64,000 bases of DNA, taken from Myxococcales bacterium. GTDB lineage: Bacteria > Myxococcota_A > Polyangia > Palsa-1104 > SHYY01. Position numbers and translations under genes: made by a program. The first letter of the stretch is position 1; every line of letters begins with the position of its first letter. This document shows, one piece after another, positions 8,304 through 56,748 of this stretch. Location of the stretch: assembly GCA_009692555.1 (NCBI GenBank), contig SHYY01000002.1, positions 19,158 to 83,157 of the forward strand, given 5' to 3'. Below the pieces are notes generated by a model, which saw only the letters and a program-made list of their open reading frames with translations, ran no database searches and was not told the DNA's origin.

Positions 8304-8396
8304 GGGTGCGGGGACTCGACGGGAAGGCTCCGCCAGAGCGCCCGGTGGTGTCAAGCGCCCCTGGGTTGTGACCAGGGATGTGACACGATTCTCCCG

Positions 8397-10355
8397 ATGG
8401 CCAACCAGCAAGAGCACCCGCAAGACACCCTCTCGTCGCTGCCGACCAATCTGCCCCCGCCTTCCGGCGAGGCGCTCGCGCCGTTCGATCCGGTCGCCGC
8501 GGAGTCGGCGCTGGCGGGCGCGCTCGGCGAGGAGGGCTTCAAGCGCTACCAGGACCGCGAACAGATCGGCGAGGGCGGGATGGGCGAGGTGCGCCTGTGC
8601 CTCGACGGGCGCTTCGGACGCGAGGTGGCGATGAAGCTGGTGCGCGCCCCGGAGGTGACCGACCACGGATCGCACGCCGACCGGCAGATGCGCTTCCTCC
8701 GCGAGGCGCGCGTGCAGGGGAGGCTGGAGCATCCGTCGATCGTCCCGGTGTACGATCTCGGCCGCGATCCGGCCGGCGCGCTCTACTTCACGATGAAGCG
8801 CGTGCGCGGCCTCACCGTCGAGGAGATCCTCCTCCAGCTCGCCGCGGGCGACCCTGCTGCGTTGCAGCAATTCTCGCGACGCAAGCTCCTCTCGGCCTTC
8901 ACCAGCGTCTGCCTGGCGGTCGATTTCGCGCACGCCCGCGGTGTGCTCCACCGCGACCTGAAGCCGTCGAACATCATGCTCGGCGACTTCGGCGAGGTGT
9001 ACGTGCTCGACTGGGGGCTGGCCAAGCTGGCCGGGCGCGAGGAGCCGGCGCCGCGCGGGGAGGCCACCACCGTCGATGATCCGGAGCTCGGCGCAGGCCG
9101 CACCGCCCACGGGGCGATGATGGGGACGCCCGGCTACATGGCGCCCGAGCAGGTGCGCGGCGAGGTCGACAAGCTGGATGCCCGCACCGACGTCTATGCG
9201 CTCGGGGCGATCCTGTTCGAGCTGCTCGCCTTGCAGCCGCTCCACGGGCGCAACAGCGCCGCCGAGGTGATCGCCGGAACGCTCACCGGCGCCGATGCGC
9301 GGGCCTCGGTGCGGGCCCCGGATCGCGATGTGCCGCCGGAGCTCGAGGCGGCGTGCATCCGTGCGACCCGCCTCGATCCCGCGGCGCGCCACCCGACGGC
9401 GCGCGAGCTGTGTCAGGCGGTGGAGCGCTTCCTCGACGGGGATCGCGATCTCGGACTGCGGCGTGAGATGGCCGCGTCGCACGCGCAGCGCGCCGAGGAG
9501 GCGGCGACGGTGGCGCTCTCCGCCGAGCCCACCGCCAACGACGAGCGGAGCCGGGCGCTGCGCGAGGTGGGGCGCGCGCTGGCGCTCGACCAGGGCCACA
9601 TCGGGGCGACCCGCACGCTGGTCCGGCTGCTCACCGAGCCGCCGCGCGAGCTGCCGCCCGCCGCCCAGGCCGAATCGGATCGGGTGGCGATGCGCGAGCA
9701 GCGCGCCGCGTCGCGGATCGGCTTCTTCGTCTACCTGAGCTGGTTCCTCTACGCGCCCGCGGTCCTCTGCATGGGCGTGCGCAACTGGACGGTGGTCGGG
9801 ATCTCGGCGGCGCTGTGGGGCGGCGCGGCGCTGTGCTGCCTCGGGATGTACCTGCGGCCGCGGCCGGTCAACACCACCCCCTACCCGCTGTTGATCCTGA
9901 GCTCGCTGGCGGTCGCCTCGAGCTCGCTCCTCTTCGGCGTCTACATCCTCCTGCCGAGCCTCGCCACGGTGAACACCATGTCCTACATGCTCGGCCGCGA
10001 GCGCTCCCACCGCCTGCTGGTGCTGGTGATCGGCTGCCTGACCATCCTCGGCCCGCTCGCCCTGGAGACCTTCGGGCTGATCCCATCGGCCTACGACTTC
10101 CACGACGGCGTGATGACCGTGCTCCCCCGCGTCCTCGATCTGCCGCCGATCCCGACCCAGGCCAGCCTCCTGATCATCCACCTCGCGGTGGTGGTCACGT
10201 CGAGCCTGATCATCGCCCGGATCCGCGACGTGAGCGCGCTCGCCGAGCGACGACTGCAGATGCAGGCGTGGCAGCTCCAGCAGCTCGCTCCCGATCAGGC
10301 GAAGGGCGCCATCGAGCCGGAGATGCCGTCCGATCCGAGGTGCTTCATCTCGTAG
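8397..10355 (+). CDS. Ser/Thr protein kinase with C-terminal multi-TM region
   Basis: Start ATG 8397 within the 1254-aa track ORF. GEGGMGEVRL, VAMKLV, HRDLKPSNIML, DWGLAK, APEQ. Hydrophobic C-terminal third. Confidence 0.9.
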   Translation: MANQQEHPQDTLSSLPTNLPPPSGEALAPFDPVAAESALAGALGEEGFKRYQDREQIGEGGMGEVRLCLDGRFGREVAMKLVRAPEVTDHGSHADRQMRFLREARVQGRLEHPSIVPVYDLGRDPAGALYFTMKRVRGLTVEEILLQLAAGDPAALQQFSRRKLLSAFTSVCLAVDFAHARGVLHRDLKPSNIMLGDFGEVYVLDWGLAKLAGREEPAPRGEATTVDDPELGAGRTAHGAMMGTPGYMAPEQVRGEVDKLDARTDVYALGAILFELLALQPLHGRNSAAEVIAGTLTGADARASVRAPDRDVPPELEAACIRATRLDPAARHPTARELCQAVERFLDGDRDLGLRREMAASHAQRAEEAATVALSAEPTANDERSRALREVGRALALDQGHIGATRTLVRLLTEPPRELPPAAQAESDRVAMREQRAASRIGFFVYLSWFLYAPAVLCMGVRNWTVVGISAALWGGAALCCLGMYLRPRPVNTTPYPLLILSSLAVASSSLLFGVYILLPSLATVNTMSYMLGRERSHRLLVLVIGCLTILGPLALETFGLIPSAYDFHDGVMTVLPRVLDLPPIPTQASLLIIHLAVVVTSSLIIARIRDVSALAERRLQMQAWQLQQLAPDQAKGAIEPEMPSDPRCFIS

Positions 10356-40992: not shown

Positions 40993-41877
40993 TCATCCGG
41001 GGGCGCGATCGATGACCAGCTTGAGGAACGCGCGCGCGGCCGCCGATGCCGTGACGCCGCGTAGACTGCCCATGTAGAAGGTGCGCTTCAGCGGTGTGCC
41101 TCTGAGCTTGACGAGGCGAACTCGCCCGGCGGCGAGATCCTCCTTCACCGCGGTGCGCGAGATGAAGGTCAGGCCTAGCCCCTCGAGGACGCAGCGCCGC
41201 GCCGCCTCCGTGCTCCCCGCCTCGATGTGGCCCTCCCGTTCGGCGAGACCGGCCGGCAGGAGCTTCGCCACCGCCTCGCGGGTGCCGGACCCCGGCTCGC
41301 GCAGGATGATCGGCAGATCGCCGAGCCCGAGGCGCGATGTCTCGCTCGTCGCGTAGGGCCCGCTCGCCGGCGCGACGAGGACGATCTCGTCGTGGGAGAA
41401 GCGGACGCAGGCGACCCGCCGATCGCGGATCGGCGAGCCGACGCAGGCCAGGTCGCAGTCCTCGCCGAGCAGCGCCGCCGTCGCCTGCCGCGAGTCGGAG
41501 ACCTTCAGGATCAGGGTGACCTCGGGGTGGGCGCGCTGGAACTCGCCGAGGAGCGGCGGCAGGAGATACTCCGCCGGGATGGTCGAGGCGGCGATCGTCA
41601 CCCGGCCGCGCTGGCCGGTCTCCTCGGCGCGCAGCCGGTGGAGCGCCTCGTCGCGCAGCGCGATCATTCGCCTGGCGAAGCCGAGCAGCACCCGGCCTGT
41701 CGGGGTCACGCGCACCGAACGCCCGCGCCGATCGATGAGCCGCGCGCCCACCGCGGTCTCGAGGGCCTTGACCTGGAAGCTGACCGTCGACTGGCTGACG
41801 TGCAGCACCTCGGAGGCGCGCGAGAAGCTGCCCAGCTCGATGACCGTCCGGAAGGTGCGGAGCTGGTCGATGTTCAT
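40993..41877 (-). CDS. LysR-family transcriptional regulator
   Basis: N-terminal HTH FRTVIELGSFSRASEVLHVSQSTVSFQVKALE. 294 aa. Confidence 0.92.
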   Translation of the reverse strand: MNIDQLRTFRTVIELGSFSRASEVLHVSQSTVSFQVKALETAVGARLIDRRGRSVRVTPTGRVLLGFARRMIALRDEALHRLRAEETGQRGRVTIAASTIPAEYLLPPLLGEFQRAHPEVTLILKVSDSRQATAALLGEDCDLACVGSPIRDRRVACVRFSHDEIVLVAPASGPYATSETSRLGLGDLPIILREPGSGTREAVAKLLPAGLAEREGHIEAGSTEAARRCVLEGLGLTFISRTAVKEDLAAGRVRLVKLRGTPLKRTFYMGSLRGVTASAAARAFLKLVIDRAPG

Positions 41878-41970: not shown

Positions 41971-42207
41971 CACCGGGCGAGCACGATCCTGTTCTGGTTC
42001 CCGCCCGAGACGCTCTGCCCGATCACGCTGTATGAGCTGGGCGCCTGGTCGATGACCGCGAAGCCGATCTTCGTGGGCGTGCATCCCGACTATCGGCGCG
42101 CCCTCGACGTGGCGATCCAGACCCGGCTCGCGCGTCCGGAGGTGATCATCGCGCCGTCGCTGGTGGCGCTGGCGGACCAGGTGCGTGCTGCGCTCTCGAC
42201 CCGCTGA
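41971..42207 (+). pseudogene. start-less 79-codon remnant of a nucleoside 2-deoxyribosyltransferase-like protein (C-terminal part)
   Basis: Open frame bounded by TAG 41968-41970 and TGA 42205-42207. It encodes ILFWFPPETLCPITLYELGAWSMTAKPIFVGVHPDY.... It has no usable start codon and is absent from the ORF track. Confidence 0.5.
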
Positions 42208-42272
42208 ACCTTCACCGGGAGCCCCGGTTCCTGCCAGGGCACCACCCGGTCAGCCACCGCCGACCTCCGGGG

Positions 42273-44471
42273 TCAGCCTCGGTCGATGAGGACCAGCAGG
42301 TCGGCGCCCGAAGTGGACCAGTCCTGCAGCAGGTGGTGCGCGCCCGCCGCGATCAGCGGGAGGCTGCGATGCTCCCAGTCGGCGCCCTCGCCCTGCGGCA
42401 CGCCGATGGCGATTCCTCCGAGCGCGCGCGTGGTGGCGACTCCGTCGGCGGCGTCGTTGAAGAACAGCAACTGCGCACCCGGGTGGGAAGCGACGAGGCG
42501 GCGGAGGCTCGCGTCGCGGAACGCCTCGGCGGTGGTCGCCTCCGGCACGAGATCGGCGGTGACGACCAGCCGCTCGTCGACCAGCTCGCCAAGGCCGCAC
42601 TCGCCGAGCTGGCCGAGCGTGCGCGCCCGGGGCGTGTGGGCGAAGGTCGCGACCGCGCGAGGGATGCCGCGCTCGCGCAACGCGGCGACGAACTCGGCGG
42701 CCGCCGCTGCGCCTTCGAGCGGCACGTCGCGCCCGACCGAAAGCCGCGCTTCGCGGAACAGGCGGGTCACGTCGGCGGCGCTGGTGCCGGGGCGCTGCGC
42801 GGCCACGCGATCGAGCACTTCGCCGTCGCTGGCGCCGTAGCTCGCGCGCTCGATCCACGCCAGCGCCCGCGCCTCGTCGAGGTCGCCGCGGAGCCGCTGG
42901 ACCACGCGCGCCATCGCGAGCTTCCAGTTGGGCCTGGCGAGCGTTCCATGGAGATCGAACACCGCGAGATACGGGCCGCGAAACGCCGGCAGATCATCGG
43001 CGACCGCGAGCAGCCTTCCCGGACGGGCCGCGCGGGCCTCGTCGAGGGGCTGACTCCCCGCCACCAGTGCACGGCCCCGCTCGTCGCTGCGCACGTAGGA
43101 GGCGCGGAAATTTTCCGGAAGGATCGAGTAGACGTCCTGTGCCCCGCCGCGCGCGAGGACGCTGCCGGCCGGGGCGTAGGCCCACGCGCCCCAGGGCGAG
43201 CGGTAGCGGATCGGCGAGGTGATCTCGGCCATCCGGCTCGGCGCCCCGCGCGGCAGGTAGAAGCCCGGGCCCTCTCGGCCCTCGGTGAAATAGCGCAACC
43301 GGAAGGTCGCGTCGGTGAGGAAGTAGCGATCGCCCTGGCTGGTCTGGATCTTCCAGTCACCCGCCTGCGCGATGTTGAAGGTCGAGCGGAAGGTGCCCTG
43401 CCCACCGACGGTCTCGAGGGTCTCGTCGGCGACCGCGGGCTCGGCGCACACGCCCTCCACCTTGCGCGCGAAGAAGAAGCGTCCGCCGGTCCACGGAGCG
43501 CCGGGCGCGTCGGCGGTGAAGTCGATCTCGGATCCGGGATCGACCAGGCGGAACTGGTGGCGGTCGGAGCGGTCCCAGCCGAGGATCGAGTTGCGGTTGT
43601 TGCGTCGCTTCGGATCGCGCGCCACCCAGGTCCAGCCGTCGTAGCTCAGCACCGGCCGCCCGACAGGGCCGACCACCCGGTTCCGCTCGTTGCCCATCAT
43701 GTTGAGCCGGTCGCGGCTGAACTGGATCTTCACGAAGGTGCGCTCGATCGTCTCCGACGTGGTGTTGAGGTCGGGGGTGTGGACGTCGTAGGGGGTCATC
43801 CGGAGCAGGGTGTAGGGCGGATAGCGCAGCGGCTCTCTTCCCTCGGCGAGCGCGTCGAAGCGCCGCAGGACGGCGACGAAATCGGTGGAGTCGATCCCGC
43901 GCAGCGAGAACGGGCCCGGGAGGAAGAGCGTCGAGAGCGCGTCGAAGACCACGTAGGTGTTGTCGACAACCGTCGGCGGCCGGTCGTCACCCTCGAGGCG
44001 GGTGGTCTCCGGCGAGACGAAGGCGTCGCCGTGCCAGCCGACGCGGCGCTGTGCCTTGCCGGGCTCCACCAGCTTCTGGTCGACGGTGAAGTAGGCGTAG
44101 TAGAGCGAGTCGAAGTCGGGGTTGATGGCGCGCTCGTGCTCCACGGCAAGGCGCAGCGCCTCCCCGAACTGCGCGAACGCCTCGGGGATGGCCCAGGCAG
44201 TGCCCGGCATGCGGATCGCGAGGTCGAGGACGCGCAGGCCGCGCTGGCGGCTGAACGCTCCCCGATCGCGGAGCTCGCCCACCACCGACGGCAGGTGCGG
44301 GCGCTCGTACTCCTCGACGTCCCACCTCATCATGTGGTGGAGCTTCTGGAGGTCGCACCCGGCGTTGCGGTCGGAGGCGGCGCGGAGGAGCTGCTCGCGC
44401 TCGGGCGCGGACAGCCTCCGCCCGAATGGCTCCGCGGGAAGTTGGGCGCGGAGCGGGTCGGGCAGCGTCAT
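42273..44471 (-). CDS. large three-module hypothetical protein: N-terminal HxD...H (cupin/2OG-oxygenase-like?) domain, central beta-rich domain, C-terminal HAD-like hydrolase
   Basis: WHGDAF...DVHTPD in the N-terminal third. C-terminus has AVFDLHGTLARP (HAD motif I-like with His in place of the second Asp) and FFNDAADG (motif IV-like). Start ATG 44471 or TTG 44510. Confidence 0.75.
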   Translation of the reverse strand: MTLPDPLRAQLPAEPFGRRLSAPEREQLLRAASDRNAGCDLQKLHHMMRWDVEEYERPHLPSVVGELRDRGAFSRQRGLRVLDLAIRMPGTAWAIPEAFAQFGEALRLAVEHERAINPDFDSLYYAYFTVDQKLVEPGKAQRRVGWHGDAFVSPETTRLEGDDRPPTVVDNTYVVFDALSTLFLPGPFSLRGIDSTDFVAVLRRFDALAEGREPLRYPPYTLLRMTPYDVHTPDLNTTSETIERTFVKIQFSRDRLNMMGNERNRVVGPVGRPVLSYDGWTWVARDPKRRNNRNSILGWDRSDRHQFRLVDPGSEIDFTADAPGAPWTGGRFFFARKVEGVCAEPAVADETLETVGGQGTFRSTFNIAQAGDWKIQTSQGDRYFLTDATFRLRYFTEGREGPGFYLPRGAPSRMAEITSPIRYRSPWGAWAYAPAGSVLARGGAQDVYSILPENFRASYVRSDERGRALVAGSQPLDEARAARPGRLLAVADDLPAFRGPYLAVFDLHGTLARPNWKLAMARVVQRLRGDLDEARALAWIERASYGASDGEVLDRVAAQRPGTSAADVTRLFREARLSVGRDVPLEGAAAAAEFVAALRERGIPRAVATFAHTPRARTLGQLGECGLGELVDERLVVTADLVPEATTAEAFRDASLRRLVASHPGAQLLFFNDAADGVATTRALGGIAIGVPQGEGADWEHRSLPLIAAGAHHLLQDWSTSGADLLVLIDRG

Positions 44472-44540
44472 CCTGGCGGCGAGAATCCACCGCGTCGGCG
44501 GCGGTGTCAAACCGAGGGAAGACGTCCCAGTTGGCGATGG

Positions 44541-45374
44541 CTAGCGGCCGAAGCCGCCGAGCGCCGCCTGGCCGAAACCCGCCGCGCCCTGGCTCGCACG
44601 GAGCGCCGACTGGGAGAACACCTGGAAGGCTCGCCGGATCTCCTGCGCGCTGTTGCCGGGAGTGAGGATCCAGCGGTCGTCGATCCCCATCTCGCGGAAC
44701 ACCCGACGGAAGTCGGTGTTGCCGTCGTCGATCCCCATCGCCGCGACGATGTGCTCCTCGGTGGCTGCGAGGTCGGAGACCAGCGCCGCCACATCGCCGG
44801 CCTGCGCGCGCACCGAGTGCTGGTCGCCGCCGTCGGTGATGAGGAGGGTGATGCTCCGCGCGGGCACTCCGCTCTCGGCGAACTCGCGCGTCTTGGCGAT
44901 CACCGTTCCGAGCAGCACCACCGACTGGTCGAACAGCGGCGTGCCGAGCGCGGCCCGGTAATTCGCCCCGTCCATCCGCGGCGCGCCGGCGATCGGCCGG
45001 TAGGGAAAGAGCACCGTGCCGTTCAGGTAGCGCGTGTGGGCCAGGATCGCCCCGCCGCTCTTCGACGACGCGAGCGCCTCGATCACCAGGTTGTGCCCGT
45101 CCCGCACCGCGCCTTCGTTGCCAGCGACGGCGATCGAGCCCGAATCGTCCGGCATGATCGTCAGCAGGAGCACTTCGCTGGCCGGCACATCGTCGACGTG
45201 CATGCCCAGCCCGGCCTGGATCCGCGCGCCGAGATCTTCGATGGTGAGCGCGTTCAGCGCCGCTCGCGAGAGCATCCCCTCGGCGTGCGCGGCCTCGATC
45301 AGCGCCTGCACATGCGGGTTTCCGTTTCCGTTTCCGTTTCCGTTTCCGTTTCCGTTTCCGTTTCCGTTTCCCAT
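44541..45374 (-). CDS. von Willebrand factor A domain protein with intact MIDAS and an N-terminal (Gly-Asn)9 repeat
   Basis: MIDAS residues DDSGS ... GTPLFD ... LLITDGGD. The start ATG 45374 is followed directly by nine GGAAAC units. Confidence 0.85.
   Translation of the reverse strand: MGNGNGNGNGNGNGNGNGNPHVQALIEAAHAEGMLSRAALNALTIEDLGARIQAGLGMHVDDVPASEVLLLTIMPDDSGSIAVAGNEGAVRDGHNLVIEALASSKSGGAILAHTRYLNGTVLFPYRPIAGAPRMDGANYRAALGTPLFDQSVVLLGTVIAKTREFAESGVPARSITLLITDGGDQHSVRAQAGDVAALVSDLAATEEHIVAAMGIDDGNTDFRRVFREMGIDDRWILTPGNSAQEIRRAFQVFSQSALRASQGAAGFGQAALGGFGR
45318..45371. repeat. perfect hexanucleotide microsatellite (GTTTCC)9 = (GGAAAC)9 on the coding strand
   Basis: 54 nt with no mismatches, directly after the start codon of the vWA gene. 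Confidence 0.97.
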
Positions 45375-45450
45375 GTCTGCCTCGTTTCTCCTGTGAGCCG
45401 TTTCAGTCCCCGCACCGAGGGGACGCGTGGAGCCGCCTTTCGGTGGTTGA

Positions 45451-46512
45451 TCAGCCGAGCGAGAGGCCCGGCCACGCCGCGATCGGATCGGTCGACCGCA
45501 CGAGGTGCATCCCCGCCGCCTCGAAGCGCCGCAGCGCCTCCTCCGCCTGCGGAGTGAAATCCGCCACGAAGCCGCCCTTGCCGTCGGGGACCGTCACCGA
45601 CGACATGCAGTCGGTGAGCACGTAGACCTTCCGCGCCAGCGCCGGATCTTTGACCGCGATCTCCGAGAGCAGGTCGTCGATCGAGCTCTTCACGCAGTGG
45701 CGCGCCGCCTGCCCGGCGATGATCACCGCGTCGGCGGTGAGGAGCGTGGAGAGGAACTGCGTGTTGCGCTGCGCCAGCGGCTGCCCGTCGTGGCGGCTCA
45801 GCACCTCGGGGCGCATCACCGAGTAGTTCTCGGTGAACGGGTTGCCTCCCTTCACCTCGGCCCACGACTGCGCGCACCGCACGAACGAGTGGAACAGGCG
45901 CGCCTCGTGGATCGTCCCGGCCAGCGCGTGCCCGTCGCTGCCGAGCAGGCAGTGCGGCGGCCAGAGGTAGAGCTTGTACTTGCCGGCGCGGGCCAGCTCG
46001 TCGCAGTAGTGCTTCACCTGCTGGAGCAGCCAGGGGTAGCTCCCGTTGCACAGCCACTTCGCCATCGCCGGGTTCGGGCGCACCTCGCCGCGGGCGATAT
46101 CGTCGCTGCCGATCTCGCGGTGCGGGGCGAGCGGGCGGTCGTCGCGATCCACCCAGAACGACGGGAAGAAGATCTGGTAGGCGAAGTGGGTGTCGAGGGT
46201 GGTGGTGATGTTGGTGATCGCGCCGAGGTTCCGGTAGATGAACGCGGCGGTGCGCAGGTTGTCCCCGAGCGCGCCCCGCCCATCGCGACCGCCCACGTAG
46301 AGCGAGCCCCTCGGGAAGCAGAAGTCCCTCTGCACGTCGATCAGCAGCAGGTGGATGTTGGTGCCGTCGGTGGCGGCGGGGGCGATGGCGTGGCGGTGGC
46401 GCCACTCGCCGGCCTCCTCGTAGAGGCGCTGCGGGTCGGGGCTGTACTCCCAGCGCTCGGCGTTCTTCGGGTCGTGGAACGAAGGCAACGGCAACGGGTT
46501 GGCGCGTTTCAT
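45451..46512 (-). CDS. pncA: long-form nicotinamidase / isochorismatase-family hydrolase
   Basis: LLLIDVQRDFCFP, LWPPHCLLGSDGHAL, catalytic Cys in IIAGQAARHCV. GGAGGTG lies 5 nt upstream of ATG 46512. Confidence 0.8.
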   Translation of the reverse strand: MKRANPLPLPSFHDPKNAERWEYSPDPQRLYEEAGEWRHRHAIAPAATDGTNIHLLLIDVQRDFCFPRGSLYVGGRDGRGALGDNLRTAAFIYRNLGAITNITTTLDTHFAYQIFFPSFWVDRDDRPLAPHREIGSDDIARGEVRPNPAMAKWLCNGSYPWLLQQVKHYCDELARAGKYKLYLWPPHCLLGSDGHALAGTIHEARLFHSFVRCAQSWAEVKGGNPFTENYSVMRPEVLSRHDGQPLAQRNTQFLSTLLTADAVIIAGQAARHCVKSSIDDLLSEIAVKDPALARKVYVLTDCMSSVTVPDGKGGFVADFTPQAEEALRRFEAAGMHLVRSTDPIAAWPGLSLG

Positions 46513-46560
46513 GGCTCACCTCCGGCCCTCGCGGGCCACTCGGGTTGGTGCGCTGCGGAA

Positions 46561-47670
46561 TCAGGCCATCCGCAGCGCGGTGATCGTCCGTCCGCCCACC
46601 ACCAGGATTCCGGCGCGCTCCACCAGCAATCGCGAGCGCGCGTCGACGAAGGACTCGGTGTCGGGAAAAGTGCGCACCGCCTCGATCCGCCCGCCGCGGA
46701 CCTCCACGCGCACGATCCCCGCGTCGGTGGGCGCGAGCAGGAAGGCTCCGGCCGCCGCCGCGCCGCCGAGGACGCCAAGCCACGAGTCGTCGCCCGCGGT
46801 GGCTTCGGCCTCGCCCAGGGTCGCGCCGTCTGCCCGCAGCGCCACGCAGCGGTGGGTGGTGCGACCGGCCTCCTGGGTCGCGAGAGAGAGCCAGGCGCGC
46901 TCCCCGTCGAAGGTACAGGCTGCCTCGACGAGCTGGCCAGAGAGCCGCGGGAATGCGGCCAGCTCCTTCACTCCCGGGCGCTCGGCGTCGAAGACGAAGC
47001 CCACCGTGATCCGACCGGCGCGGTAGAAGCCGACCCCGAAGCGCTCCCCGACGAAGAGCCGGGTCTGGCCCGCCAGCGTCGTGCCGATCGTCTCGGGCCC
47101 GAAGCGGCCGTCGCGGAGCAGCAGGCCACCCTGGGCCCAGTAGGCGTGGTGCGCGTTTGCATCGAACGCCGGCTCGCCACCAACGACATCCACCGAGAGC
47201 CGCTCGGGCCTGCATCCGGGCGAGAAGATCGCGAGGTCGCCGCCGCGAGCGATCAGGGTCGCCGCCCCGCGCAGCCGCACCTTCGCAGAGGGATCGAGGC
47301 GCGCGCCCTCGTCGATGACACCGCCGTCTTCCCGCCTCAAGATCTCGCCCTCCTGGGAGAGCCACGTGGGGGACCCATCCGCCCCGATCGCGGCGAACAC
47401 GATCCGGCCGCTGGTCTCGCACCGACGGGTCGCCGTCACGTCGCCGCGCACGGTCACCACCACCTCGCCGTGCGTGGCGCCGGGCGCGCAACCGGGGCAC
47501 GCCTCGCGCGCGTGCTCGATGCCGCAGCGTTCGCAGCGACGGAAGCAGAGCGTCTCCAGGAGCCGCGCCGGAAAGGCCTCGCGGAGGTCCTTCTCGAAAA
47601 CGAGGTGAAGCTGATGGAGCAGCTCGTCGGGCAGCGCCCGCCAGGGAGTGGCCGGCTTCGGGTAGACCAC
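46561..47670 (-). CDS. hypothetical protein: N-terminal Zn-ribbon (CxxC-x11-CxxC) followed by a long beta-rich region
   Basis: CFRRCERCGIEHAREACPGCAP, then about 300 aa of G/V/R/A-rich strand-like sequence. The part of the 581-aa track ORF above 47787 overlaps pncB and is rejected. Start uncertain (GTG 47670 chosen, no clear RBS). Confidence 0.6.
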   Translation of the reverse strand: MVYPKPATPWRALPDELLHQLHLVFEKDLREAFPARLLETLCFRRCERCGIEHAREACPGCAPGATHGEVVVTVRGDVTATRRCETSGRIVFAAIGADGSPTWLSQEGEILRREDGGVIDEGARLDPSAKVRLRGAATLIARGGDLAIFSPGCRPERLSVDVVGGEPAFDANAHHAYWAQGGLLLRDGRFGPETIGTTLAGQTRLFVGERFGVGFYRAGRITVGFVFDAERPGVKELAAFPRLSGQLVEAACTFDGERAWLSLATQEAGRTTHRCVALRADGATLGEAEATAGDDSWLGVLGGAAAAGAFLLAPTDAGIVRVEVRGGRIEAVRTFPDTESFVDARSRLLVERAGILVVGGRTITALRMA

Positions 47671-47786
47671 CTCGGGGTCGAAGACGGTGACGCGGCGGAG
47701 CGGGCGCGCACCCGGCAGAGACCTTCGCGCCGGATCCTTCGGGCGGTAGACGCCTCCGTAGGGCCCGACGACGGGCCGCGCTTCGT

Positions 47787-49277
47787 TCAGGGCGGGCGGC
47801 TCTGCTCCCGCGCCGCGAGGATCATGCGCGTCTTCAGCGCGTGGAGGCCGCGCTCGAGGCCAACCGGGTACTGGTGCGGGTGCTTGAAGCGGCGGATCCC
47901 CGGGTGCAGGCGGGCGATCTCGGCGCGCGCGCGCTCGCGGATCGCGGCGATGGTGGGCGACTCCCCCACCCGGCGACCGCCGCGAACCACCGGGACCAGC
48001 AGGTCTTCGTGGGCGGCGTGCTCGGCGAACTCCTTGCTGCGGGTCGGGTCCAGCGGATCGATGATCACCCGGCTCGCCGGGCCGAGCTCCTCGTCGTAGA
48101 TGAGGTCGCCGAGGAGGGTCGCGCCATCCGGCCCGAGGTAGCGCCGCACCTGGAGCACCCCCGGCGTCGAGACCTTGGCGGCCTGCTCCGAGAGCTTGAT
48201 CCGCGGGCGCCATGCGCCACCCGGCACACGTACCGCCGAGAGCTTGTAGACGCCGCCGAGCGCGGCCTCCTCGAACGCGGTGATCAGCCGGGTGCCCACC
48301 CCCCACATCGTGATCGCCGCACCCTGCTCCCGCAGGCTGCCAATCACGTGCTCGTCGAGATCGTTGCTGGCGATGATCGCGACGCCCGGGAATCCGGCCT
48401 CGTCGAGGAGGCGGCGCGCCGCGATGCTGAGGTAGGCGAGATCGCCCGAATCGAGGCGGATGCCGGCCAGCTCATGGCCCCGCTCGCGCAGCGCGTGGCC
48501 GGCCTCGATCGCGTTCTGGACGCCGCGGAGGGTGTCGTAGGTGTCGACGAGGAATACGCAGTTGCCGGGCTGCGCCTCGGCGTAGGCGCGGAAGGCGGCG
48601 GGCTCGTCGTCGAAGAGCATCACCCAGCTATGGGCGTGCGTCCCTCGCACCGGGATATCGAGGAGGCGACCCGCGAGCACGTTGGAGGTGGCTGCGCACC
48701 CGCCGATGTGGGCGGCGCGACTGGCTGCGAGCGCTCCGTCGATGCCCTGCGCGCGCCGGAGGCCGAACTCGAGCACCGGCGCGCCGCGGGCCGCCTCGCA
48801 GATCCGCGCGGCCTTGGTGGCGATCAGCGTCTGGAAGTTGATGATGTTGAGCAGCGCCGACTCCAGCAGCACGCAGGCGATGAAGGGACCCTGCACGCGC
48901 ATCAGCGGCTCGTTCGGGAACACCACCCGGCCCTCGGGGATGGCGTCGACGTCGCAGAGCAGGGCGAGCCCACCGAGGTAGTCGAGGAAGGCGGGCTCGA
49001 AGAGCGGACCGCCCCCGCCGTCGCGGAGGCCCTGGAGGTAGGCGAGATCCTCGGGGTCGAAGCGGTGGCTGGTGATGTAGTCGACGGCATGCGCGAGGCC
49101 GCAGGCGACGGCGTAGCCGCTGCCAAACGGGGTCCGCCGGAAGTAGAGGTGGAAGGTGCCTTCGCGCTCGGCGGCGCCGGACCGCCACGCCGCGCTGGCC
49201 ATCGTCAACTCGTAGAGGTCGGTGAGGAGGCCGAGCGCCGGGCGATAGAGGCTGGAGGGGAGGCTCACGCCGAGCAC
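47787..49277 (-). CDS. pncB: nicotinate phosphoribosyltransferase
   Basis: [12 protein letters not shown]-terminal signature, [22 protein letters not shown] motifs. 496 aa, GTG start. Confidence 0.9.
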
Positions 49278-49323: not shown

Positions 49324-49380
49324 GTGCTTAACGGAGAAGGGGGTCCCTCCGCTCACGTAGTGGTAGTCGTAGTCGTAGTC
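49324..49380. repeat. solo arm of the family D palindromic element (copy D2)
   Basis: GTGCTTAACGGAGAAGGGGGTCCCTCCGCTCACGTAGTGGTAGTCGTAGTCGTAGTC matches the reverse complement of 1307-1363 at 56 of 57 positions. It ends 22 nt before the kinase start codon. Confidence 0.85.
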
Positions 49381-49402
49381 GGCCTTTGAAACGGAGGAGC
49401 CC

Positions 49403-51403
49403 GTGGCAGATTCCCACGATCAGATCAAGCTGGCCTCGGGTGAGCAGGTGGCGCCCACGGCGGGGCCGAGGCGGAGAGCTGCGGGTGACGCGTTGACCCG
49501 CACGATCGATCCGCGCCGCCTCGCGCTCGAGGGAACGCTGGCCGCGCCGGCTCCGCGCAAGGCCGCCCCCGCCCCGTCGCTGCCGGTGATCTCGATCGGC
49601 GGTCCCGACGGCGCGGGCGCGCACGGGGAGGAGCTGGCGGTGACGCGCACCCTCGGCGAGGGCGGGATGGCGCGGGTCGATGAGGCGTGGCAGCGGTCGC
49701 TGGAGCGCCGGGTGGCGATCAAGCGGGTGCGTCCCGATCGTTGGAGCGAGGCCGCCGACCAGGATCTGCTCCACGAGGCGCGGATCGTGGGCGCGCTCGA
49801 GCACCCGAACATCATCCCGGTCCACGCGTTCGGCGTCGATCGGGGCGGGCAATCGGTGCTGGTGATGAAGTGCGTCGAGGGGGTTTCGTGGCGCGCGCTG
49901 ATGGAGCAACCGGAGCACCCGGTGTGGCAGGGGCGTACCGACGAGCCGCTGGGGCGCCACCTGGAGATCCTCCAGCAGGTGTGCAACGCGGTGCAGTTCG
50001 CCCACGGCCAGGGGGTGATCCATCGCGATCTCAAGACCGATAACGTGATGATCGGGGCGTGCGGCGAAGTCTACGTGGTCGACTGGGGGATCGCGGTCAA
50101 GCTCGACGAGCGTGGGCAGGCACCCGCGCCCGACCTCGCCGGGACGCCCGCCTTCATGGCGCCCGAGATGGTGCGTCCGGGCCATTGCCTCACGGTCCGC
50201 ACCGACGTGTACCTGCTTGGCGGGATCCTGCACGAGATCCTGACCGGCGGTTCCCGCCACGACGGCGTGACCCTCGAGGAGGTGCTCCAGCAGGCGCGCG
50301 AATCGCGGCCTTGTGAGCACGACCCGTCGGTGCCCGAGGAGCTGGCGGCGATCTGCCGGCGCGCGACCCAGGTCGATCCGGCGGCCCGGTATCCCGATGT
50401 GCCGGCCTTTCGCGAAGCGATCGCGGGCTTCCTGCGCCACCGGGGATCGACGCTTCTCGGCGAGGAGGGCGCGCGGCGTCTCGTGGAGCTGCGGGCGCTT
50501 CTGGACGCTCCCCCGGGGGCGGCGCCGGGCGCGGCCGTCGACCCGCGGAACCTGGTGGTCCGCCGGCTGGCCGCGGAGTGTCGCTTCGCTTGCGATCAGG
50601 CGCTGCGGGCGTGGCGCGACAACGTGGCGGCAGCTCGCACGGCGCGGGACTGCGGACGGGCGATGATCGATTTCGAGCTGTCGGCGGGCAACGTCGCGGC
50701 GGCCGAGTCGCTGCTCTCCGAGCTGGCCGCTCCGGAGCCCGTCCTCGTCGAGCAGGTGCGGGTCGCGCGCGCCCGGAGCGACGCGGATCGGGGCGGGGCC
50801 GGCCGGCTCGCGGTGCTCCTCCAGGATGCGGACCTCCAGGCGGAGGAGGCGATGCGCCTCCGCACCTACCTGATCGGCTCGGTGGTCATGACCCTCACCG
50901 TCGCGGTGATCCTGTTTCTCGGCCGCACCGGGCGAATGGAGGTCCAGGCGCTCCACGTGATCGCGGTGATCGGACTGCCGATGGTCCCCCTCACGATCGT
51001 CGCCCTGCGGAGCTGGCGCACGCTGCGTGACCGGCGCGTGAACCGGAAGCTGGTGTTCGCCTGGTTGGCCCTCATCGTCGCCGAGCTGGTCGAGGCGATC
51101 GTCTGCGCGCGCCTGCACGTCCCGGTGGGCGCGCTGCTCGCCACCATCGCGCTGATCTCCGGGCTCGGAGCGGTGCTCTTCGGGCTGTTCCTCGACACGC
51201 GGCGGCTCTTGCCCGTGGTTGCGGCGATCGCGCTGGTGCCTCTGGGTGCCCTGGTGTGGCCGGATCGCGTGCTGGAGGGGATGACGTTCGCGATGGTGGT
51301 GGCGACGGCGGCCTACCTCCGCGCGTGGCGGCGCGCTGTCGGTGAGCTGGCGAGCCGGGAGTCGGTCAGGCGCTCACGATCGTCGCCGAAGATCGAGACG
51401 TAG
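49403..51403 (+). CDS. Ser/Thr protein kinase with C-terminal multi-TM region
   Basis: GEGGMARVDEA, VAIKRV, HRDLKTDNVMI, DWGIAV, APEM. GTG start preceded by GGAGGAG. Hydrophobic C-terminus. Confidence 0.88.
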   Translation: MADSHDQIKLASGEQVAPTAGPRRRAAGDALTRTIDPRRLALEGTLAAPAPRKAAPAPSLPVISIGGPDGAGAHGEELAVTRTLGEGGMARVDEAWQRSLERRVAIKRVRPDRWSEAADQDLLHEARIVGALEHPNIIPVHAFGVDRGGQSVLVMKCVEGVSWRALMEQPEHPVWQGRTDEPLGRHLEILQQVCNAVQFAHGQGVIHRDLKTDNVMIGACGEVYVVDWGIAVKLDERGQAPAPDLAGTPAFMAPEMVRPGHCLTVRTDVYLLGGILHEILTGGSRHDGVTLEEVLQQARESRPCEHDPSVPEELAAICRRATQVDPAARYPDVPAFREAIAGFLRHRGSTLLGEEGARRLVELRALLDAPPGAAPGAAVDPRNLVVRRLAAECRFACDQALRAWRDNVAAARTARDCGRAMIDFELSAGNVAAAESLLSELAAPEPVLVEQVRVARARSDADRGGAGRLAVLLQDADLQAEEAMRLRTYLIGSVVMTLTVAVILFLGRTGRMEVQALHVIAVIGLPMVPLTIVALRSWRTLRDRRVNRKLVFAWLALIVAELVEAIVCARLHVPVGALLATIALISGLGAVLFGLFLDTRRLLPVVAAIALVPLGALVWPDRVLEGMTFAMVVATAAYLRAWRRAVGELASRESVRRSRSSPKIET

Positions 51404-51409: not shown

Positions 51410-53572
51410 TCACTTCGGGCAGACCGGACCGCTGCAGAGCATGCGGCGCGGGACCTTTCCCTCGGGGGTGGCGGCGTTGTAGCGCGAGGGGAGGTTGCCG
51501 CCGTTCTTCATCGACTCGCCGCGGATGTACTCGGCGAGCGCCTCGAAGTCCTTCACCTCGCTCTTCTCGGCGTCCTTGCGGTGGACGATGGTGTCAGGCA
51601 GCGGGACGAATTTGCCGTTCTTGTTCTTGAGCGTCACACCGACGCTGTCGGCGAAGCTGGCGATGTACATGTTGGTCGACACGCCGTAGAGGGTCATCGC
51701 GTCGCGCACGGTGTTCGGCGGCGTCCACGGGAGCGCGCGATTCATGTCGAACAGCACGGTATCGAAGGCGCCCTCGTAGCCCTTCGAGTGATCGGAGATC
51801 CACTCGATCTTGGTCACCCGCCCGTTGGTGGGCACGAAGTTTCCTTTCGCCGAATCGAAGGGCGCGCGCGTGGTGTCGTAGGTGACGCGCATCCCGCTCG
51901 GGACGAGGAAGAGCGAGTTGGTGCCCTCCTGCAGGCCGTAGTTGGCGGCGATCTCGAAGGCGATCTTGATCTCCACGAACAGCAGGTAGACATGCACCAG
52001 CGGGTAGCCGATCGAGCCGTCGGCGGGGCTGATCCCGAGCGGCAGGATGCGGAACAGGTCGGCGAAGGCGAGGTTGCCGGTCTTGCCCTTCGGGAGGTCG
52101 CCGCGGATCACGCCCGCCGAGTGGATCGCGAGGTCGGTGGTCTCGCCGCTGCCCATCGGGCTGGCGTACTTGTCGGCCGCGGCGAAGAGCGCGTCGGAGG
52201 CGAGATTGAGCAACTCGGTCTCCTGCGACGGGAGAAGGCCCACCACGTCGAACGGCGCCTTGCCGAGGGTGCGGAAGTAGAGGTCGCCCTCCTTGGCCGC
52301 GTCGTCCTTCACCGGCGTGCCCTCGATCCGGCCGAGGGCTCCCTCGAGGAACGACTTGCCGGTCATCCCGAACGGCTTGGTCTCGAGCTCGCGCACCGCC
52401 GCGCTCTGCGCCATCACCATCGCCGGGTCGGGCAGGATCTTGTCGTCGACCGGGACCAGCTTCGAGCCGGCCGCGTCGAAGCTGACGCTGCCGTCGGTGG
52501 CGACGGTCAGGTCGAGCCGCCCGACGTAGGCCCCGTAGGAGCCGGCCTGCACCACGAACACCTTCTTCTTGGTGCTCGTGTTCACGACGACGATCGGCGC
52601 GGTGACGACGGTGTGGGTGTGGCCGCTGACGATCACGTCGATCCCCGGGACGTTCTGCGCGATCCGGTAGTCCTCGCCCTGCTCGGGCTTCACGAGGTCG
52701 ACGCCCGAGTGGCTGAGCGCGATCACCAGATCCACCTTCTCGACGGTGCGCAGGCGATCCACCGTCGGCTGGATATCGGCGTAGAGCGCCTTCAGCACCT
52801 CGTCGGTGGCGGTCTCCTTCTTCGACGCGCCGAGCGAGAAGGTCACCGGCGCCTTGGGGGTCTCGACGTAGGCCGCGTTGGCGCCGACGATCCCGAGCAG
52901 GCCGACCTTGAGCCCGTTGGAGGTGGTGAGCACATGGTATTTCTGCACCAGCTTCGAGGGGTCGGGTAGCTCGGCGTAGGCGGCGGCGAGCGTGTCATCG
53001 CGCGCGTCCATCGCATCGAAGTGGATGTTGGTCGACAGCGTCGGGATGAGGCCGCTGCCCGACTGCGCCGCCTTGAGCGCGGTGGCGAGCGCGGCGGGAC
53101 CGAAATCGAACTCGTGGTTGCCGAGGCAGGTGGCGTCGTAGCCGAGCGTCTTCATGAGCGTGAAGTCGGGCGCGGTGGTGGTGAAGCCGACCTGTGGGAG
53201 CGTCCCCATCACGTTGTCCCCGGCGCTGAGCGTGAGCGTCGCCGCGCCCGCCGTCTTCGCCGCGTCGCGCTCCTGCTTGAGCACCGTCATCCGCCGCGCC
53301 ACCCCGCCCTTCAGCGTGCCGGTGCCCGGCGTGTTCGCAGTCGGGAAATCGTCGAGCTCCGGCGCGAAGGCGAAGAGGTGCGAGTGCTCGTCGTTGGTGT
53401 GGAGCAGAATCAGGCGGCGCGGACCGGCTTGCGCGAGGTCCGGCGGCCCGGCGTCCAGGGTCGCCTGGGCGTCCGATCCACCGTCGGTGGCGTCGGTGGG
53501 GGTGGGGGTGGTGCCGCAGCCCGAGGCCGCGAGGAGAAGGAGAGGTGCCAGTCGATTCATGGAACGATTCAT
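51410..53572 (-). CDS. UshA-like bifunctional metallophosphatase/5'-nucleotidase lipoprotein
   Basis: Start ATG 53572 (GGAGGA upstream). Lipobox LLAASGC. HTNDEHSH, SAGDNVMG, LGNHEFDFG metallophosphatase motifs. C-terminal nucleotidase domain. Confidence 0.88.
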   Translation of the reverse strand: MNRSMNRLAPLLLLAASGCGTTPTPTDATDGGSDAQATLDAGPPDLAQAGPRRLILLHTNDEHSHLFAFAPELDDFPTANTPGTGTLKGGVARRMTVLKQERDAAKTAGAATLTLSAGDNVMGTLPQVGFTTTAPDFTLMKTLGYDATCLGNHEFDFGPAALATALKAAQSGSGLIPTLSTNIHFDAMDARDDTLAAAYAELPDPSKLVQKYHVLTTSNGLKVGLLGIVGANAAYVETPKAPVTFSLGASKKETATDEVLKALYADIQPTVDRLRTVEKVDLVIALSHSGVDLVKPEQGEDYRIAQNVPGIDVIVSGHTHTVVTAPIVVVNTSTKKKVFVVQAGSYGAYVGRLDLTVATDGSVSFDAAGSKLVPVDDKILPDPAMVMAQSAAVRELETKPFGMTGKSFLEGALGRIEGTPVKDDAAKEGDLYFRTLGKAPFDVVGLLPSQETELLNLASDALFAAADKYASPMGSGETTDLAIHSAGVIRGDLPKGKTGNLAFADLFRILPLGISPADGSIGYPLVHVYLLFVEIKIAFEIAANYGLQEGTNSLFLVPSGMRVTYDTTRAPFDSAKGNFVPTNGRVTKIEWISDHSKGYEGAFDTVLFDMNRALPWTPPNTVRDAMTLYGVSTNMYIASFADSVGVTLKNKNGKFVPLPDTIVHRKDAEKSEVKDFEALAEYIRGESMKNGGNLPSRYNAATPEGKVPRRMLCSGPVCPK

Positions 53573-53631
53573 GGGTCCTCCGTGGCGGCGATCTTCCGCT
53601 GCATGGTATCGTCCGCGCACGGAGGTTCGCT

Positions 53632-54834: not shown

Positions 54835-56748
54835 ATGAGGCTCCTCAAGATCGCCATCGCCAACGTCAACTCCACCGTCGGTGCGGTGCGCTCGAACGTC
54901 AACCGTGCGCTCGCGCTGGCGCACGCCGCGGCGGCCGACGGGGCGACGCTGATCGCACTGCCCGAGCAGTGCATCTCCGGATATCCGCCGGAAGATCTGG
55001 TGCAGTGGCGGGCGTTCGTCGACGCCCAGTGGGACGAGCTGCACCGCTTCGCCCGCGAGACCGCCAGCCTCGGCGCGGCGCTCGCGATCGGCGTCACCTG
55101 TGCCCGCGGGCCCCTGATCTACAACTGCGCCGCGCTCGTCCACCGCGGCCGGGTGCGCGGCCTGGTCCCGAAGGAGAAGCTCCCGACCTACAACGTCTTC
55201 TACGAGGGGCGCACTTTCACCCGCGGCGTCCCAGGCCTTTGGGACGAGCTCTCCGGCATCCCCTTCGGCGACCTGGTCTTCGACCTCGACTTCGGCACCA
55301 TCGCGCTCGAGGTGTGCGAGGACATCTGGTCGCCCGACGGACCGATGCGTCGTCGCTGCTACGCCGGCGCCGAGGTGGTGCTGAACCTCTCCGCCTCGCC
55401 CTTCCGGCTCGGCATCTCGGCCACCCGCCGCGAGATGATCGCCACCCGCGCCGCCGACAATCAGGCGGTGGTGGTGTACGCGGCGCTGGTCGGTGCCAAC
55501 GATGGCCTGATCTTCGACGGGGGGGGCTACATCTACCAGAACGGCCGTCTTTGCCACGATGCGCCGCGCTTTCGCGAGGGCTTCTCCGCCGCCACCGTCG
55601 ATCTCGATCGCACCCGCCGCCTGCGCGCCGAGAACACCACCTGGCGCACCGATCACGAGACCTTCGCCCCGCTCGCAGCGTCGGTGAAGCACATCCCCAT
55701 CGACGAGCCGACGGAAGGCCGCGATCGGTTGACCTACCCCGTGCCGGCCCACGGGAGCTTTTTCCTTCCGCCGCCCGAGGCTCACCGCCCGGCGCGGAGC
55801 GAGTTTTGCGAGGAGCTGCTCGATGCCCTCACCCTTGGCGTCGGCGACTACTTCGAGAAGATCGGCTGCTTTCGCACGATCGGCGTGGCGCTCTCGGGCG
55901 GGCGCGACAGCCTGCTCTGCCTGATCATCGCCCGTCGCTACGTCGACCGTCGCTTTGCCGCGCTCGACGAGGCCGGGCGGCGCGAGAAGGCCGGCGAGCA
56001 TTGCCGCGCGTTCTTCATGCCCTCGCCCTACTCGTCGCCCGAAACCACCCGCGCCGCCGCGGTCGCCGCCGCCGAGCTGGGCGTTCCGTTGGCGATCGTT
56101 TCCGTTGATGAAGCGTTCGAGCGCGAGCTTCTTGCCGTCGCTGCCATGCTCCAGCCCGGCGAAGCGCTCACCGCCGCCGCCCGCCAGAATGCCCAGGCCC
56201 GCGTGCGCGCGGCGCGGATGTGGACCTGGTCGAACTGCGCCGCCGGCCTGTTCCTCCAGACCAGCAACATGAGCGAGAAGGCGGTCGGCTATTCCACCAT
56301 CGGCGGCGACGGCGAGGGCGCCCTCGCGGTGATCGCCAACCTCCCGAAGACCGTCGTCAATTACCTGCTCGATTACCTCCTCGAGACCACCGGCTCGGAG
56401 GCCATCCGCCTGACCCTCTTGAAGCCCGCCACCGCCGAGCTGGCCGAGGGCATGGAGGACGAGAAGGACCTCATGCCCTTCCCGGTGCTCGACGCCTGCT
56501 TCGCCCTCTTCGCCGGCGAGAAGATGGCCCCTGGCGAGGTCGAAGAGGTGCTCCGCGCCCTGTTCCCCGACGAGGACGCCGCCCGCCTGGCAGCCTGGAC
56601 CGAGAAGTTCGCGCGGCTCTTCACCCAATCGATCTACAAGTGGGTGCAGGCCCCGATCTCGCTCCACGTCGGCAACCTCGACCTCGATCGCGAGCGCGCC
56701 CTGCAGCTCCCGGTGGTCGAGCGCGGCGAATGGTGGCGCCGCGGGTGA
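54835..56748 (+). CDS. nadE: glutamine-dependent NAD+ synthetase (CN-hydrolase domain plus PP-loop synthetase domain)
   Basis: N-terminal nitrilase-like LPEQ...K...CEDIW. SGGRDS PP-loop. 637 aa. Confidence 0.93.
   Translation: MRLLKIAIANVNSTVGAVRSNVNRALALAHAAAADGATLIALPEQCISGYPPEDLVQWRAFVDAQWDELHRFARETASLGAALAIGVTCARGPLIYNCAALVHRGRVRGLVPKEKLPTYNVFYEGRTFTRGVPGLWDELSGIPFGDLVFDLDFGTIALEVCEDIWSPDGPMRRRCYAGAEVVLNLSASPFRLGISATRREMIATRAADNQAVVVYAALVGANDGLIFDGGGYIYQNGRLCHDAPRFREGFSAATVDLDRTRRLRAENTTWRTDHETFAPLAASVKHIPIDEPTEGRDRLTYPVPAHGSFFLPPPEAHRPARSEFCEELLDALTLGVGDYFEKIGCFRTIGVALSGGRDSLLCLIIARRYVDRRFAALDEAGRREKAGEHCRAFFMPSPYSSPETTRAAAVAAAELGVPLAIVSVDEAFERELLAVAAMLQPGEALTAAARQNAQARVRAARMWTWSNCAAGLFLQTSNMSEKAVGYSTIGGDGEGALAVIANLPKTVVNYLLDYLLETTGSEAIRLTLLKPATAELAEGMEDEKDLMPFPVLDACFALFAGEKMAPGEVEEVLRALFPDEDAARLAAWTEKFARLFTQSIYKWVQAPISLHVGNLDLDRERALQLPVVERGEWWRRG

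Follow-up and report, generated by a model that had tools for sequence, protein, structure and literature searches.

The DNA considered here is a stretch of 64,000 nucleotides (the window) from contig SHYY01000002.1 of a Myxococcales bacterium (assembly GCA_009692555.1, positions 19,158 to 83,157, forward strand), with a G+C content of ~71%, and the subject is a row of five genes within it that opens with pncB, a gene of nicotinamide adenine dinucleotide (NAD) salvage. An earlier interpretation made from the letters of this stretch alone (the sequence-only reading) had described five closely spaced co-directional genes on the minus strand, and the open reading frames (ORFs) were confirmed. They lie head to tail: pncB (47787-49277, minus strand, 496 aa) is followed after 116 bp by g2 (46561-47670, minus strand, 369 aa), after a further 48 bp by g3 (45451-46512, minus strand, 353 aa), after 76 bp by g4 (44541-45374, minus strand, 277 aa) and after 69 bp by g5 (42273-44471, minus strand, 732 aa). 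The g5 start at 44471 is that of the NCBI annotation, and an alternative TTG start at 44510 would reduce the space between g4 and g5 to 30 bp. Three terminator-like sites were found against 1.9 expected from shuffling, two of them on the wrong strand and inside a repeat, and the intergenic spaces of the row hold no such site beyond the shuffle expectation. No sigma-70-like promoter was found by a consensus scan, and no riboswitch or other RNA exceeded the Rfam threshold over 41-50 kb. This layout is compatible with a single transcript.

Two of the five genes are assigned to the Preiss-Handler route of NAD salvage. The pncB product scored 571 bits against a cut-off of 469 on NCBIfam NF006695, which bears out its earlier label as a PncB-like enzyme, and 525 bits against 297 on TIGR01513; it matched the Pfam families NAPRTase_N, NAPRTase and NAPRTase_C and is 64% identical to its counterpart in a related locus (L008, described below). 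It is predicted to be a bona fide nicotinate phosphoribosyltransferase (PncB). The g3 product, read earlier as a 353-aa nicotinamidase and also named so by NCBI, shares three collinear blocks with PncA of Mycobacterium tuberculosis (3pl1), which the g3-family profile matched at E 6e-4. In order, these are the D59 block, the WPPHC block and the C273 block, and in PncA their counterparts hold, respectively, the catalytic Asp, the metal site WPxHC and the catalytic Cys. The candidate catalytic residues D59, K221 and C273 and the candidate metal ligands D107, H109 and H187 (WPPHC) are invariant in two alignments (A3 and A5) and align to the PncA blocks in 3pl1 and 3r2j. The protein falls below curated thresholds (Pfam Isochorismatase 17.9 bits vs 27; NCBIfam PRK11609 20.9 vs 174) and is of a longer type, ~350 aa in contrast to the ~190 aa typical of PncA, so it is best described as a divergent, long-form, PncA-like nicotinamidase. 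It is well conserved, with 70-76% identity across Myxococcus, Corallococcus, Archangium, Cystobacter, Sorangium, Haliangium and Anaeromyxobacter. Together pncB and g3 are predicted to encode the first two Preiss-Handler steps, from nicotinamide to nicotinate and from nicotinate to nicotinate mononucleotide (NaMN).

The long-form nicotinamidase gene belongs to an operon of fixed order in the Myxococcota. A g3 profile retrieved 80 loci from species-representative genomes, and with two loci found earlier these made a set of 82 in which components were counted by tblastn; the set is titled mostly Myxococcota, with a few metagenome-assembled genomes of Elusimicrobia, Deltaproteobacteria or Proteobacteria, and many of the absences in it are contig ends. 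Every locus holds g3, which is followed by g4 in 80 of the 82. The C-terminal part of g2 is present in 78, the kinase domain of g2 in 68, a PP2C phosphatase gene in 62 and, upstream, nrtR, which encodes a regulator of NAD metabolism from the ADP-ribose family, in 47, while pncB occurs in 14, nadE in eight and any domain of g5 in none. The order is nrtR, PP2C, a gene for a kinase with a Zn ribbon and a beta-rich domain (kinase-Zn-ribbon-beta), g3 and g4, and Myxococcus xanthus is among the species with the operon intact. In the locus L008 the sequence of genes is pncB, nadE, nrtR, PP2C, kinase, g3 and g4, and two others (L081 and L086) have pncB, nadE, nrtR and g3 with the triad of kinase, phosphatase and g4 absent. 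Pfam detected NUDIX with NrtR_WHD and PP2C_2 in the annotated examples L008 and L009, the second of which adjoins the housekeeping genes hrcA-grpE-dnaK. The neighbourhood survey that the sequence-only reading had proposed for its three odd genes therefore gave a divided answer. Homologues of g2 and g4 are syntenic with the nicotinamidase gene and flank it nearly throughout, with nrtR upstream in more than half of the loci, which supports the claim that more than pncA and pncB ties the cluster to NAD; g5 has no place in the operon, and pncB is linked to it only in a minority. For g5, membership in the conserved operon was rejected on this count.

Two further observations were made on these loci. 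In three of them (L008 at 11790-14000, L010 and L069) a ~736-aa protein with an N-terminal S-adenosylmethionine-dependent methyltransferase domain is encoded after the vWA gene g4; it occupies the slot that g5 has in the window and is not homologous to g5. In addition, an element TTGACAT-GTGTC-N5-7-GACACTA(A/T)G is conserved ~40-90 bp upstream of nrtR (L008, L054, L059, L060, L071 and others). It overlaps a -35-like hexamer, and the box is a candidate NrtR operator of myxobacteria.

Compared with these loci, g2 of the window is incomplete. All complete homologues are 547-641 aa long, and g2 aligns with their C-terminal ~370 residues only. A profile of the full-length proteins matched 230 protein kinases of the PDB (best E 1.3e-4, profile positions 18-233), over a stretch that begins with the Gly-rich loop, includes the catalytic loop and the DFG-equivalent and extends to helix alpha-F, and their residues K36, D148, N153 and D165 are invariant. 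Downstream of this region a segment with four Cys matches the Nop10 Zn ribbon (profile positions 294-323). What 46561-47670 retains is the 4-Cys Zn ribbon (~47488-47535) and the ~290-aa beta-rich C-terminal domain, and every catalytic motif of the kinase is gone. The earlier description of a Zn-ribbon, beta-rich protein holds for these two parts, but not for a complete gene. Between g2 and pncB, at 47671-47789 on the minus strand, lie ~39 codons that resemble a kinase C-lobe, lack a start and abut and overlap the pncB stop codon. By BLASTP, residues 215-254 of the 626-aa protein of L008 align from about position 47790 of the window, 39 codons upstream of the GTG start of g2; the similarity ends at the pncB stop codon, and an in-frame ATG, GTG or TTG is not present until 47670. 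Kinase codons that run without a start up to the stop of the preceding gene look like the scar of a deletion, and g2 itself reads as a 5'-truncated remnant from which the first ~214 kinase residues are missing. An assembly artefact at this junction was considered and rejected, since a second contig in ENA, possibly built from the same reads, has the identical order of pncB, a 117-bp gap and a 369-aa gene. The remnant is 48.7% identical to its homologues, and intact homologues at equal divergence of g3 reach 43 +/- 8%; it is thus not over-diverged, and either the deletion happened not long ago or constraint still acts on the remnant.

The g4 product had been read as a von Willebrand factor A (vWA) protein with a complete metal-ion-dependent adhesion site (MIDAS). 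Its signature D76-x-S78-x-S80...T145...D181 is indeed complete and is invariant in 11 homologues, and the family has at least 2750 members, some of whose orthologues are named VWA or VWFA domain-containing in UniRef. The fold found no such backing, because profile searches with g4 against the PDB, Pfam and NCBIfam gave no match that supports it. Single-sequence searches of the PDB with g2, g4 and g5 returned no meaningful match either, and tblastn with g4 against plasmids gave nothing useful. A vWA assignment is probable. The N-terminus of g4 carries (Gly-Asn)x9, encoded by a (GTTTCC)x9 repeat at 45318-45371 on the minus strand (Tandem Repeats Finder, 9.0 copies, 100% match). The repeat is missing from the homologues, and the length of this microsatellite could vary in frame.

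The regulatory half of the operon was not found in the window. Its 64 kb contain no nrtR gene and no PP2C gene, nor a copy of the operator-like GTGT-N-ACACTA box, so that it has neither of the two features, regulator gene or operator, by which an NrtR regulon would be recognized. A single deletion reaching from the end of pncB into the middle of the kinase gene, in an ancestor of the L008 type, would account for the loss of nrtR, of PP2C and of the kinase head; such an ancestral state is itself a reconstruction. The nadE gene, which comes after pncB in L008, is displaced in the window, and this implies a further rearrangement.

The three proteins that accompany the nicotinamidase in the intact operon have a known counterpart. 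The TerY-P system consists of a TerY-like vWA protein, a PP2C phosphatase and a Ser/Thr kinase with a C-terminal Zn ribbon (PMC11090510, summarising Anantharaman, Iyer and Aravind 2012). It has been proposed to act as a metal-sensing phosphorylation switch, and related modules are reported as stand-alone anti-phage systems (PMC11090510). A kinase with a Zn ribbon and a beta-rich domain, a PP2C protein and a vWA protein were also described as a recurring module (Kaur et al., 2020; PMC7159879). Counterparts of all three proteins occur in the intact myxobacterial operon, whose kinase shows this kinase-Zn ribbon-beta architecture too and whose putative vWA protein stands alone and carries a complete MIDAS motif. 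Unlike TerY-P, the operon has a nicotinamidase gene between kinase and vWA and nrtR upstream. By analogy, the intact operon is an NrtR/NAD-salvage locus that incorporates a TerY-P-like triad for phospho-signalling. The copy in the window departs further, in two of the three defining components: the fusion of kinase and Zn ribbon, found in the homologous loci, has lost its catalytic domain here, and the adjacent PP2C gene that most of them carry is missing. PADLOC, whose models of defence systems are expected to cover TerY-P, gave no match on the window proteins and only weak matches to other models (PD-T4-6, MkoA and PDC-M01A, E 0.003-0.06) on the intact L008 and L009 proteins. On the side of NAD salvage, the loci L008, L081 and L086 share pncB, nadE and nrtR beside a nicotinamidase gene with the NrtR-regulated operons of Rodionov et al. 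(2008; PMC2330246), a paper that mentions no kinase, phosphatase or vWA partners; a review of phage NAD metabolism and the TerY-P-related texts searched are silent on such partners as well. The window shares with NrtR/Preiss-Handler operons pncB and a nicotinamidase gene in one row, with nadE nearby, and differs in having no nrtR and no operator-like box.

The last gene of the row, g5, encodes a fusion of three domains. Domain A (43662-44414, minus strand, residues ~20-270) is a double-stranded beta-helix resembling Fe(II)/2-oxoglutarate (2OG) dioxygenases, and the beta-rich domain B (43077-43604, minus strand, residues ~290-465) is conserved together with it in a two-domain family. The core formed by the two (residues ~20-465) is highly conserved and was modelled separately, at a pLDDT score (predicted local distance difference test) of 71. 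The best 50 fold matches of this model in the PDB are all Fe(II)/2OG dioxygenases (E ~2e-3, probability 0.85-1.0), with SptF, KanJ, EvdO2 and AviO1 among the named matches of domain A, and H147-x-D149...H231...R244 is invariant across the family. The HxD...H signature and the oxygenase-like module recognized in the sequence-only reading have therefore stood up. A double-stranded beta-helix with an HxD/E...H triad and a basic residue, the features of the dioxygenase class, is present at moderate strength, and a 2OG-oxygenase-like fold is a moderately supported prediction for the N-terminal module. PhyH-like Fe(II)/2OG dioxygenases (SptF, AndA, KanJ, EvdO2, AviO1) are the best fold matches and have the HxD...H...R arrangement in common with g5; the differences are that the oxygenase-like part of g5 matches none of the Pfam families or PDB chains at the sequence level and that g5 has the extra conserved beta domain. 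The core profile was likewise negative against PDB sequences, and domain A matches phrog_1843, a family of unknown function, at 1e-18. For domain B, whose model is all-beta, Pfam gives a weak match to PGDYG (0.085 in the window protein, 6.5e-4 in a relative, P0052).

The C-terminal domain of g5 (42276-42989, minus strand) has the HAD fold, and HAD matches dominate the full-length model. Foldseek against the PDB gave 210 matches at E<=1e-3, the top listed of which are HAD phosphatases and dehalogenases; Pfam Hydrolase matches at 1.4e-3, and the fold is the Rossmannoid one of the superfamily. Motif I is atypical (D-L-H-G-T), and 'FDLHGT' is found in all seven HAD-bearing homologues aligned. With beta-phosphoglucomutase-like phosphatases and L-2-haloacid dehalogenases g5 shares the fold, the nucleophile Asp and the motif IV NDxxDG. 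In contrast to the phosphatase motif DxDx(T/V), the second Asp, the acid/base, is replaced by His, and D-L-H-G-T resembles the DxYGT of dehalogenases. The earlier assignment to a HAD-like phosphatase with an atypical motif I thus keeps its fold and its motif, but the label 'phosphatase' is insecure because the acid/base Asp is missing. All residues invariant in the family are kept in the window protein.

The family of g5 is broad. An indexed search found only 12 close relatives, and an exhaustive profile search 1396 proteins, many of them stand-alone domain A paralogues of ~250 aa. Fusions within the family join it to NadR-type NMNAT-like CTP_transf, IMPase, HD, Pol-beta nucleotidyltransferase and histidine phosphatase domains. 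One contig that also has a terminase gene (L002) places an NMNAT-fused member near genes for NAPRTase, NadE, Prs, PncA, NMNAT, NUDT9 and a NAD-kinase-like protein, and similar gene sets lie near NMNAT-fused members in L007 and L093. Among viruses, the best match of the g5 core in a library of viral structures is an uncharacterised Orpheovirus protein (E 4e-31), followed by phage proteins, some of them named 2OG-Fe(II) oxygenases. Domain A is encoded by jumbo phages, T4-like Acinetobacter phages and Microbacterium phages, always under the annotation 'hypothetical'. In Ralstonia phage RsoM2USA (L090) a NadV/NAMPT-like gene, RsoM2USA_14 (6487-7884), lies two annotated genes upstream of the domain A gene RsoM2USA_12 (7935-8738); RsoM2USA_13 is a short opposite-strand ORF that overlaps both, and all three are annotated 'hypothetical protein'. 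The NadV-like gene was identified by a Pfam scan, whereas BLAST with a set of NAD proteins found none in this phage. In Salicola phage SCTP-2 no NAD genes were found near domain A, and a scan of the viral_contigs set with the core profile found no relatives.

These family contexts do not extend to the closest relatives of g5. In all six loci examined for HAD-type orthologues (57-67% identical), pncA, pncB, g2, g3 and g4 are absent and no NAD context is seen; g5 accordingly stands in a unique position in the window, and a link to NAD applies at the level of the family. Phage NAD+ gene sets are known (NadV/NadM/NadR, PMC9503650; NARP1, NARP2 and NARP3, PMC13464706), and g5 relatives also stand in NAD clusters, as in L002 and RsoM2USA. 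The window gene differs from that setting in being chromosomal, in having a HAD domain in place of NMNAT and in the missing NAD context of its close orthologues. The NAD-synthesis section of PMC9503650 names no 2OG-oxygenase-like component, nor do the abstracts and outline consulted on the NARP pathways.

Several observations on the family stand by themselves. The region 1-15154 of L002 holds genes for NUDT9-like, IMPase, NadE, PncA, NAPRTase, NAD-kinase-like, Prs and NMNAT proteins, two 2OG-oxygenase-like genes and one for a 1018-aa unknown protein, an unusually complete NAD gene set. A conserved protein of ~86 aa is encoded right after the NMNAT-oxygenase fusion genes (L003 6411-6671; L007 3332-3592 and 7858-8136), with a paralogue in L007, and its sole Pfam match is a weak one to XPA_C. 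Some giant proteins (P0045, P0046, P0049, P0050 and P0051; 1620-6010 aa) contain the oxygenase-like and beta module as well, and one of them, P0045, has no Pfam match.

Around the row, the window holds other genes of nucleotide metabolism. A glutamine-dependent NAD synthetase gene, nadE (54835-56748, plus strand; Pfam CN_hydrolase and NAD_synthase), lies 5.5 kb off and is homologous to the nadE of L008. Just upstream of the cluster is a gene for a UshA-like 5'-nucleotidase/metallophosphoesterase (51410-53620, minus strand), so that, with nadE, the neighbourhood has more nucleotide and NAD genes than the five-gene row. A canonical Ser/Thr kinase gene (49403-51403) is divergent from pncB, and the intergenic region between the two contains a (CGTAGT)x4.3 repeat (49356-49381). 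On the other side of the row, at 41971-42206 on the plus strand, lies what is left of a nucleoside 2-deoxyribosyltransferase-like gene, a C-terminal fragment without a start (Pfam Nuc_deoxyri_tr2, E 3e-5, profile positions 66-105 of 105). It had been noticed as a remnant of such a gene just past the row, and a start-less fragment it is, but one that reaches 24.6 bits against a Pfam cut-off of 30, does not hold a complete domain and is encoded on the other strand, convergent with g5. Its position, wedged between a LysR regulator gene (40993-41877) and the end of g5, suggests local rearrangement. It was rejected as a member of the cluster for its strand and its fragmentary state and is probably outside the unit.

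Taken as a whole, the evidence favours, with somewhat better than even confidence, a composite reading in which the window cluster is the Myxococcota-wide operon in a lineage-specific and partly decayed form that would have lost its phospho-control and gained g5 separately. In the intact operon, kinase and PP2C phosphatase would toggle the phosphorylation of a partner recruited by the MIDAS site of the vWA protein, and this partner could be the nicotinamidase or NrtR. Such a phospho-switch would tune nicotinamide recycling, with the vWA MIDAS as its recruiting or sensing element. In the window genome this control would be lost or brought down to a binding-only remnant, with g2 and g4 persisting as intact ORFs. 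The g5 gene would have been acquired separately, and its product would combine an Fe(II)/2OG-oxygenase-like part with a beta domain and a hydrolase of the HAD fold. Going by the fusions and neighbours of its family, it may act on a pyridine or another nucleotide or nucleoside, and it may have been placed in the cluster through a shared NAD-related role, not as a step of a fixed five-gene pathway. Several points weigh against this composite reading. The vWA fold of g4 is drawn from a motif and from UniRef names while profile searches were negative, and for domain A both the E-values and the TM-scores of the fold matches are modest, on a model of pLDDT 71. Since PADLOC matched none of the PP2C, kinase and vWA proteins, the relation to TerY-P is one of architecture and not of family membership. 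The g2 remnant has not diverged further than its full-length homologues and may be functional in its own right, so that 'decay' may overstate its condition; nrtR or PP2C could sit elsewhere in the genome, beyond the window; and the close orthologues of g5 are found without NAD genes. Operon status and every activity named here are predictions.

Three other explanations compete with this one. The sequence-only reading had suggested that all five genes form one route, in which the phosphoribosyltransferase makes NaMN, the HAD domain turns it into the riboside and the oxygenase-like domain modifies this to a modified pyridine nucleoside. Tight co-directional spacing without internal terminators would suit such a route, as would the joining of oxygenase-like and HAD folds in g5 and the occurrence of its family in NAD clusters and in fusions with NMNAT-like, IMPase, HD and histidine phosphatase domains. 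However, none of the 82 nicotinamidase loci holds g5 and none of six g5 orthologue loci holds pncA or pncB, g4 and the truncated g2 belong to a signalling triad, the DLHGT of the HAD domain lacks the Asp+2 acid/base, and pncB itself is linked in 14 loci only; the five-gene pathway to a modified riboside was given up in its original form and is now quite unlikely. The cluster could instead be a conflict module, in which triad and nicotinamidase act in anti-phage defence or counter-counter-defence, for example by removing nicotinamide so that a phage cannot rebuild NAD+, and g5 is a captured NAD enzyme of phage type. TerY-P-like triads reported as stand-alone anti-phage systems (PMC11090510), the need of phage NAD+ reconstitution pathways for nicotinamide, as given in published abstracts, and the relatives of g5 in phages and giant viruses all point this way. 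Yet no PADLOC model matches any component, the operon is spread over the Myxococcota at ~70% identity and in fixed order, unlike variable defence islands, it stands at least once beside hrcA-grpE-dnaK (L009), and the window copy lacks kinase and phosphatase, so that a conflict role is unlikely.

A third alternative would have plain salvage with debris around it: only pncB and the nicotinamidase gene would be functional, g2 would be a pseudogene, g4 an orphan and g5 an unrelated gene brought in by rearrangement. The scar with its start-less kinase codons, the second gene fragment adjoining at 41971-42206 and the displacement of nadE to the other strand fit this explanation. Against this, g2 keeps an ORF of 369 codons and an identity not below that expected from intact homologues, g4 keeps every invariant MIDAS residue and g5 all the invariant residues of its family, which makes this explanation very unlikely. 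The partly decayed Myxococcota operon with a separately acquired g5 is therefore preferred over all three.

The components themselves are of known kinds, namely Preiss-Handler enzymes, a TerY-P-like triad, a 2OG oxygenase and a HAD domain. What may be new is their association. In the literature searched, no published description was found of the gene combination or of either association with NAD, in line with the earlier remark that the combination was not recognized as a described system. A triad hard-wired to a nicotinamidase under NrtR across the Myxococcota appears undescribed there, and the same appears to be true of the repeated association, in contigs of phage-like and other character, of the oxygenase-like family with NAD genes and NMNAT-like domains.

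Bacteria and phages contend centrally over the supply of NAD+, which is also a key control point of metabolism. The boldest reading, held only tentatively and more doubtful than the composite one, is that two undescribed NAD-linked systems may be involved: a Myxococcota switch of TerY-P type on a nicotinamidase under NrtR, and a family of 2OG-oxygenase-like and beta-domain proteins acting on a pyridine nucleotide or nucleoside. If this is true, the second would be a viral and bacterial enzyme family with a new pyridine reaction, for example a new branch of NAD reconstitution or modification. Should the oxygenase-like proteins act on pyridine nucleotides, they would be an extra enzyme in the NAD sets of phages and giant viruses, outside the described pathways. 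The first system would be a phosphorylation-gated recycling of nicotinamide, for NAD homeostasis or for conflict with phage or prey. The window would be a natural deletion variant of it, in which nicotinamidase, vWA protein and Zn-ribbon/beta domain are retained after the loss of kinase and phosphatase. If the coupling of the switch to the nicotinamidase is true, it would represent a new mode of regulation of NAD salvage, for which Myxococcus xanthus would be a genetically tractable system.

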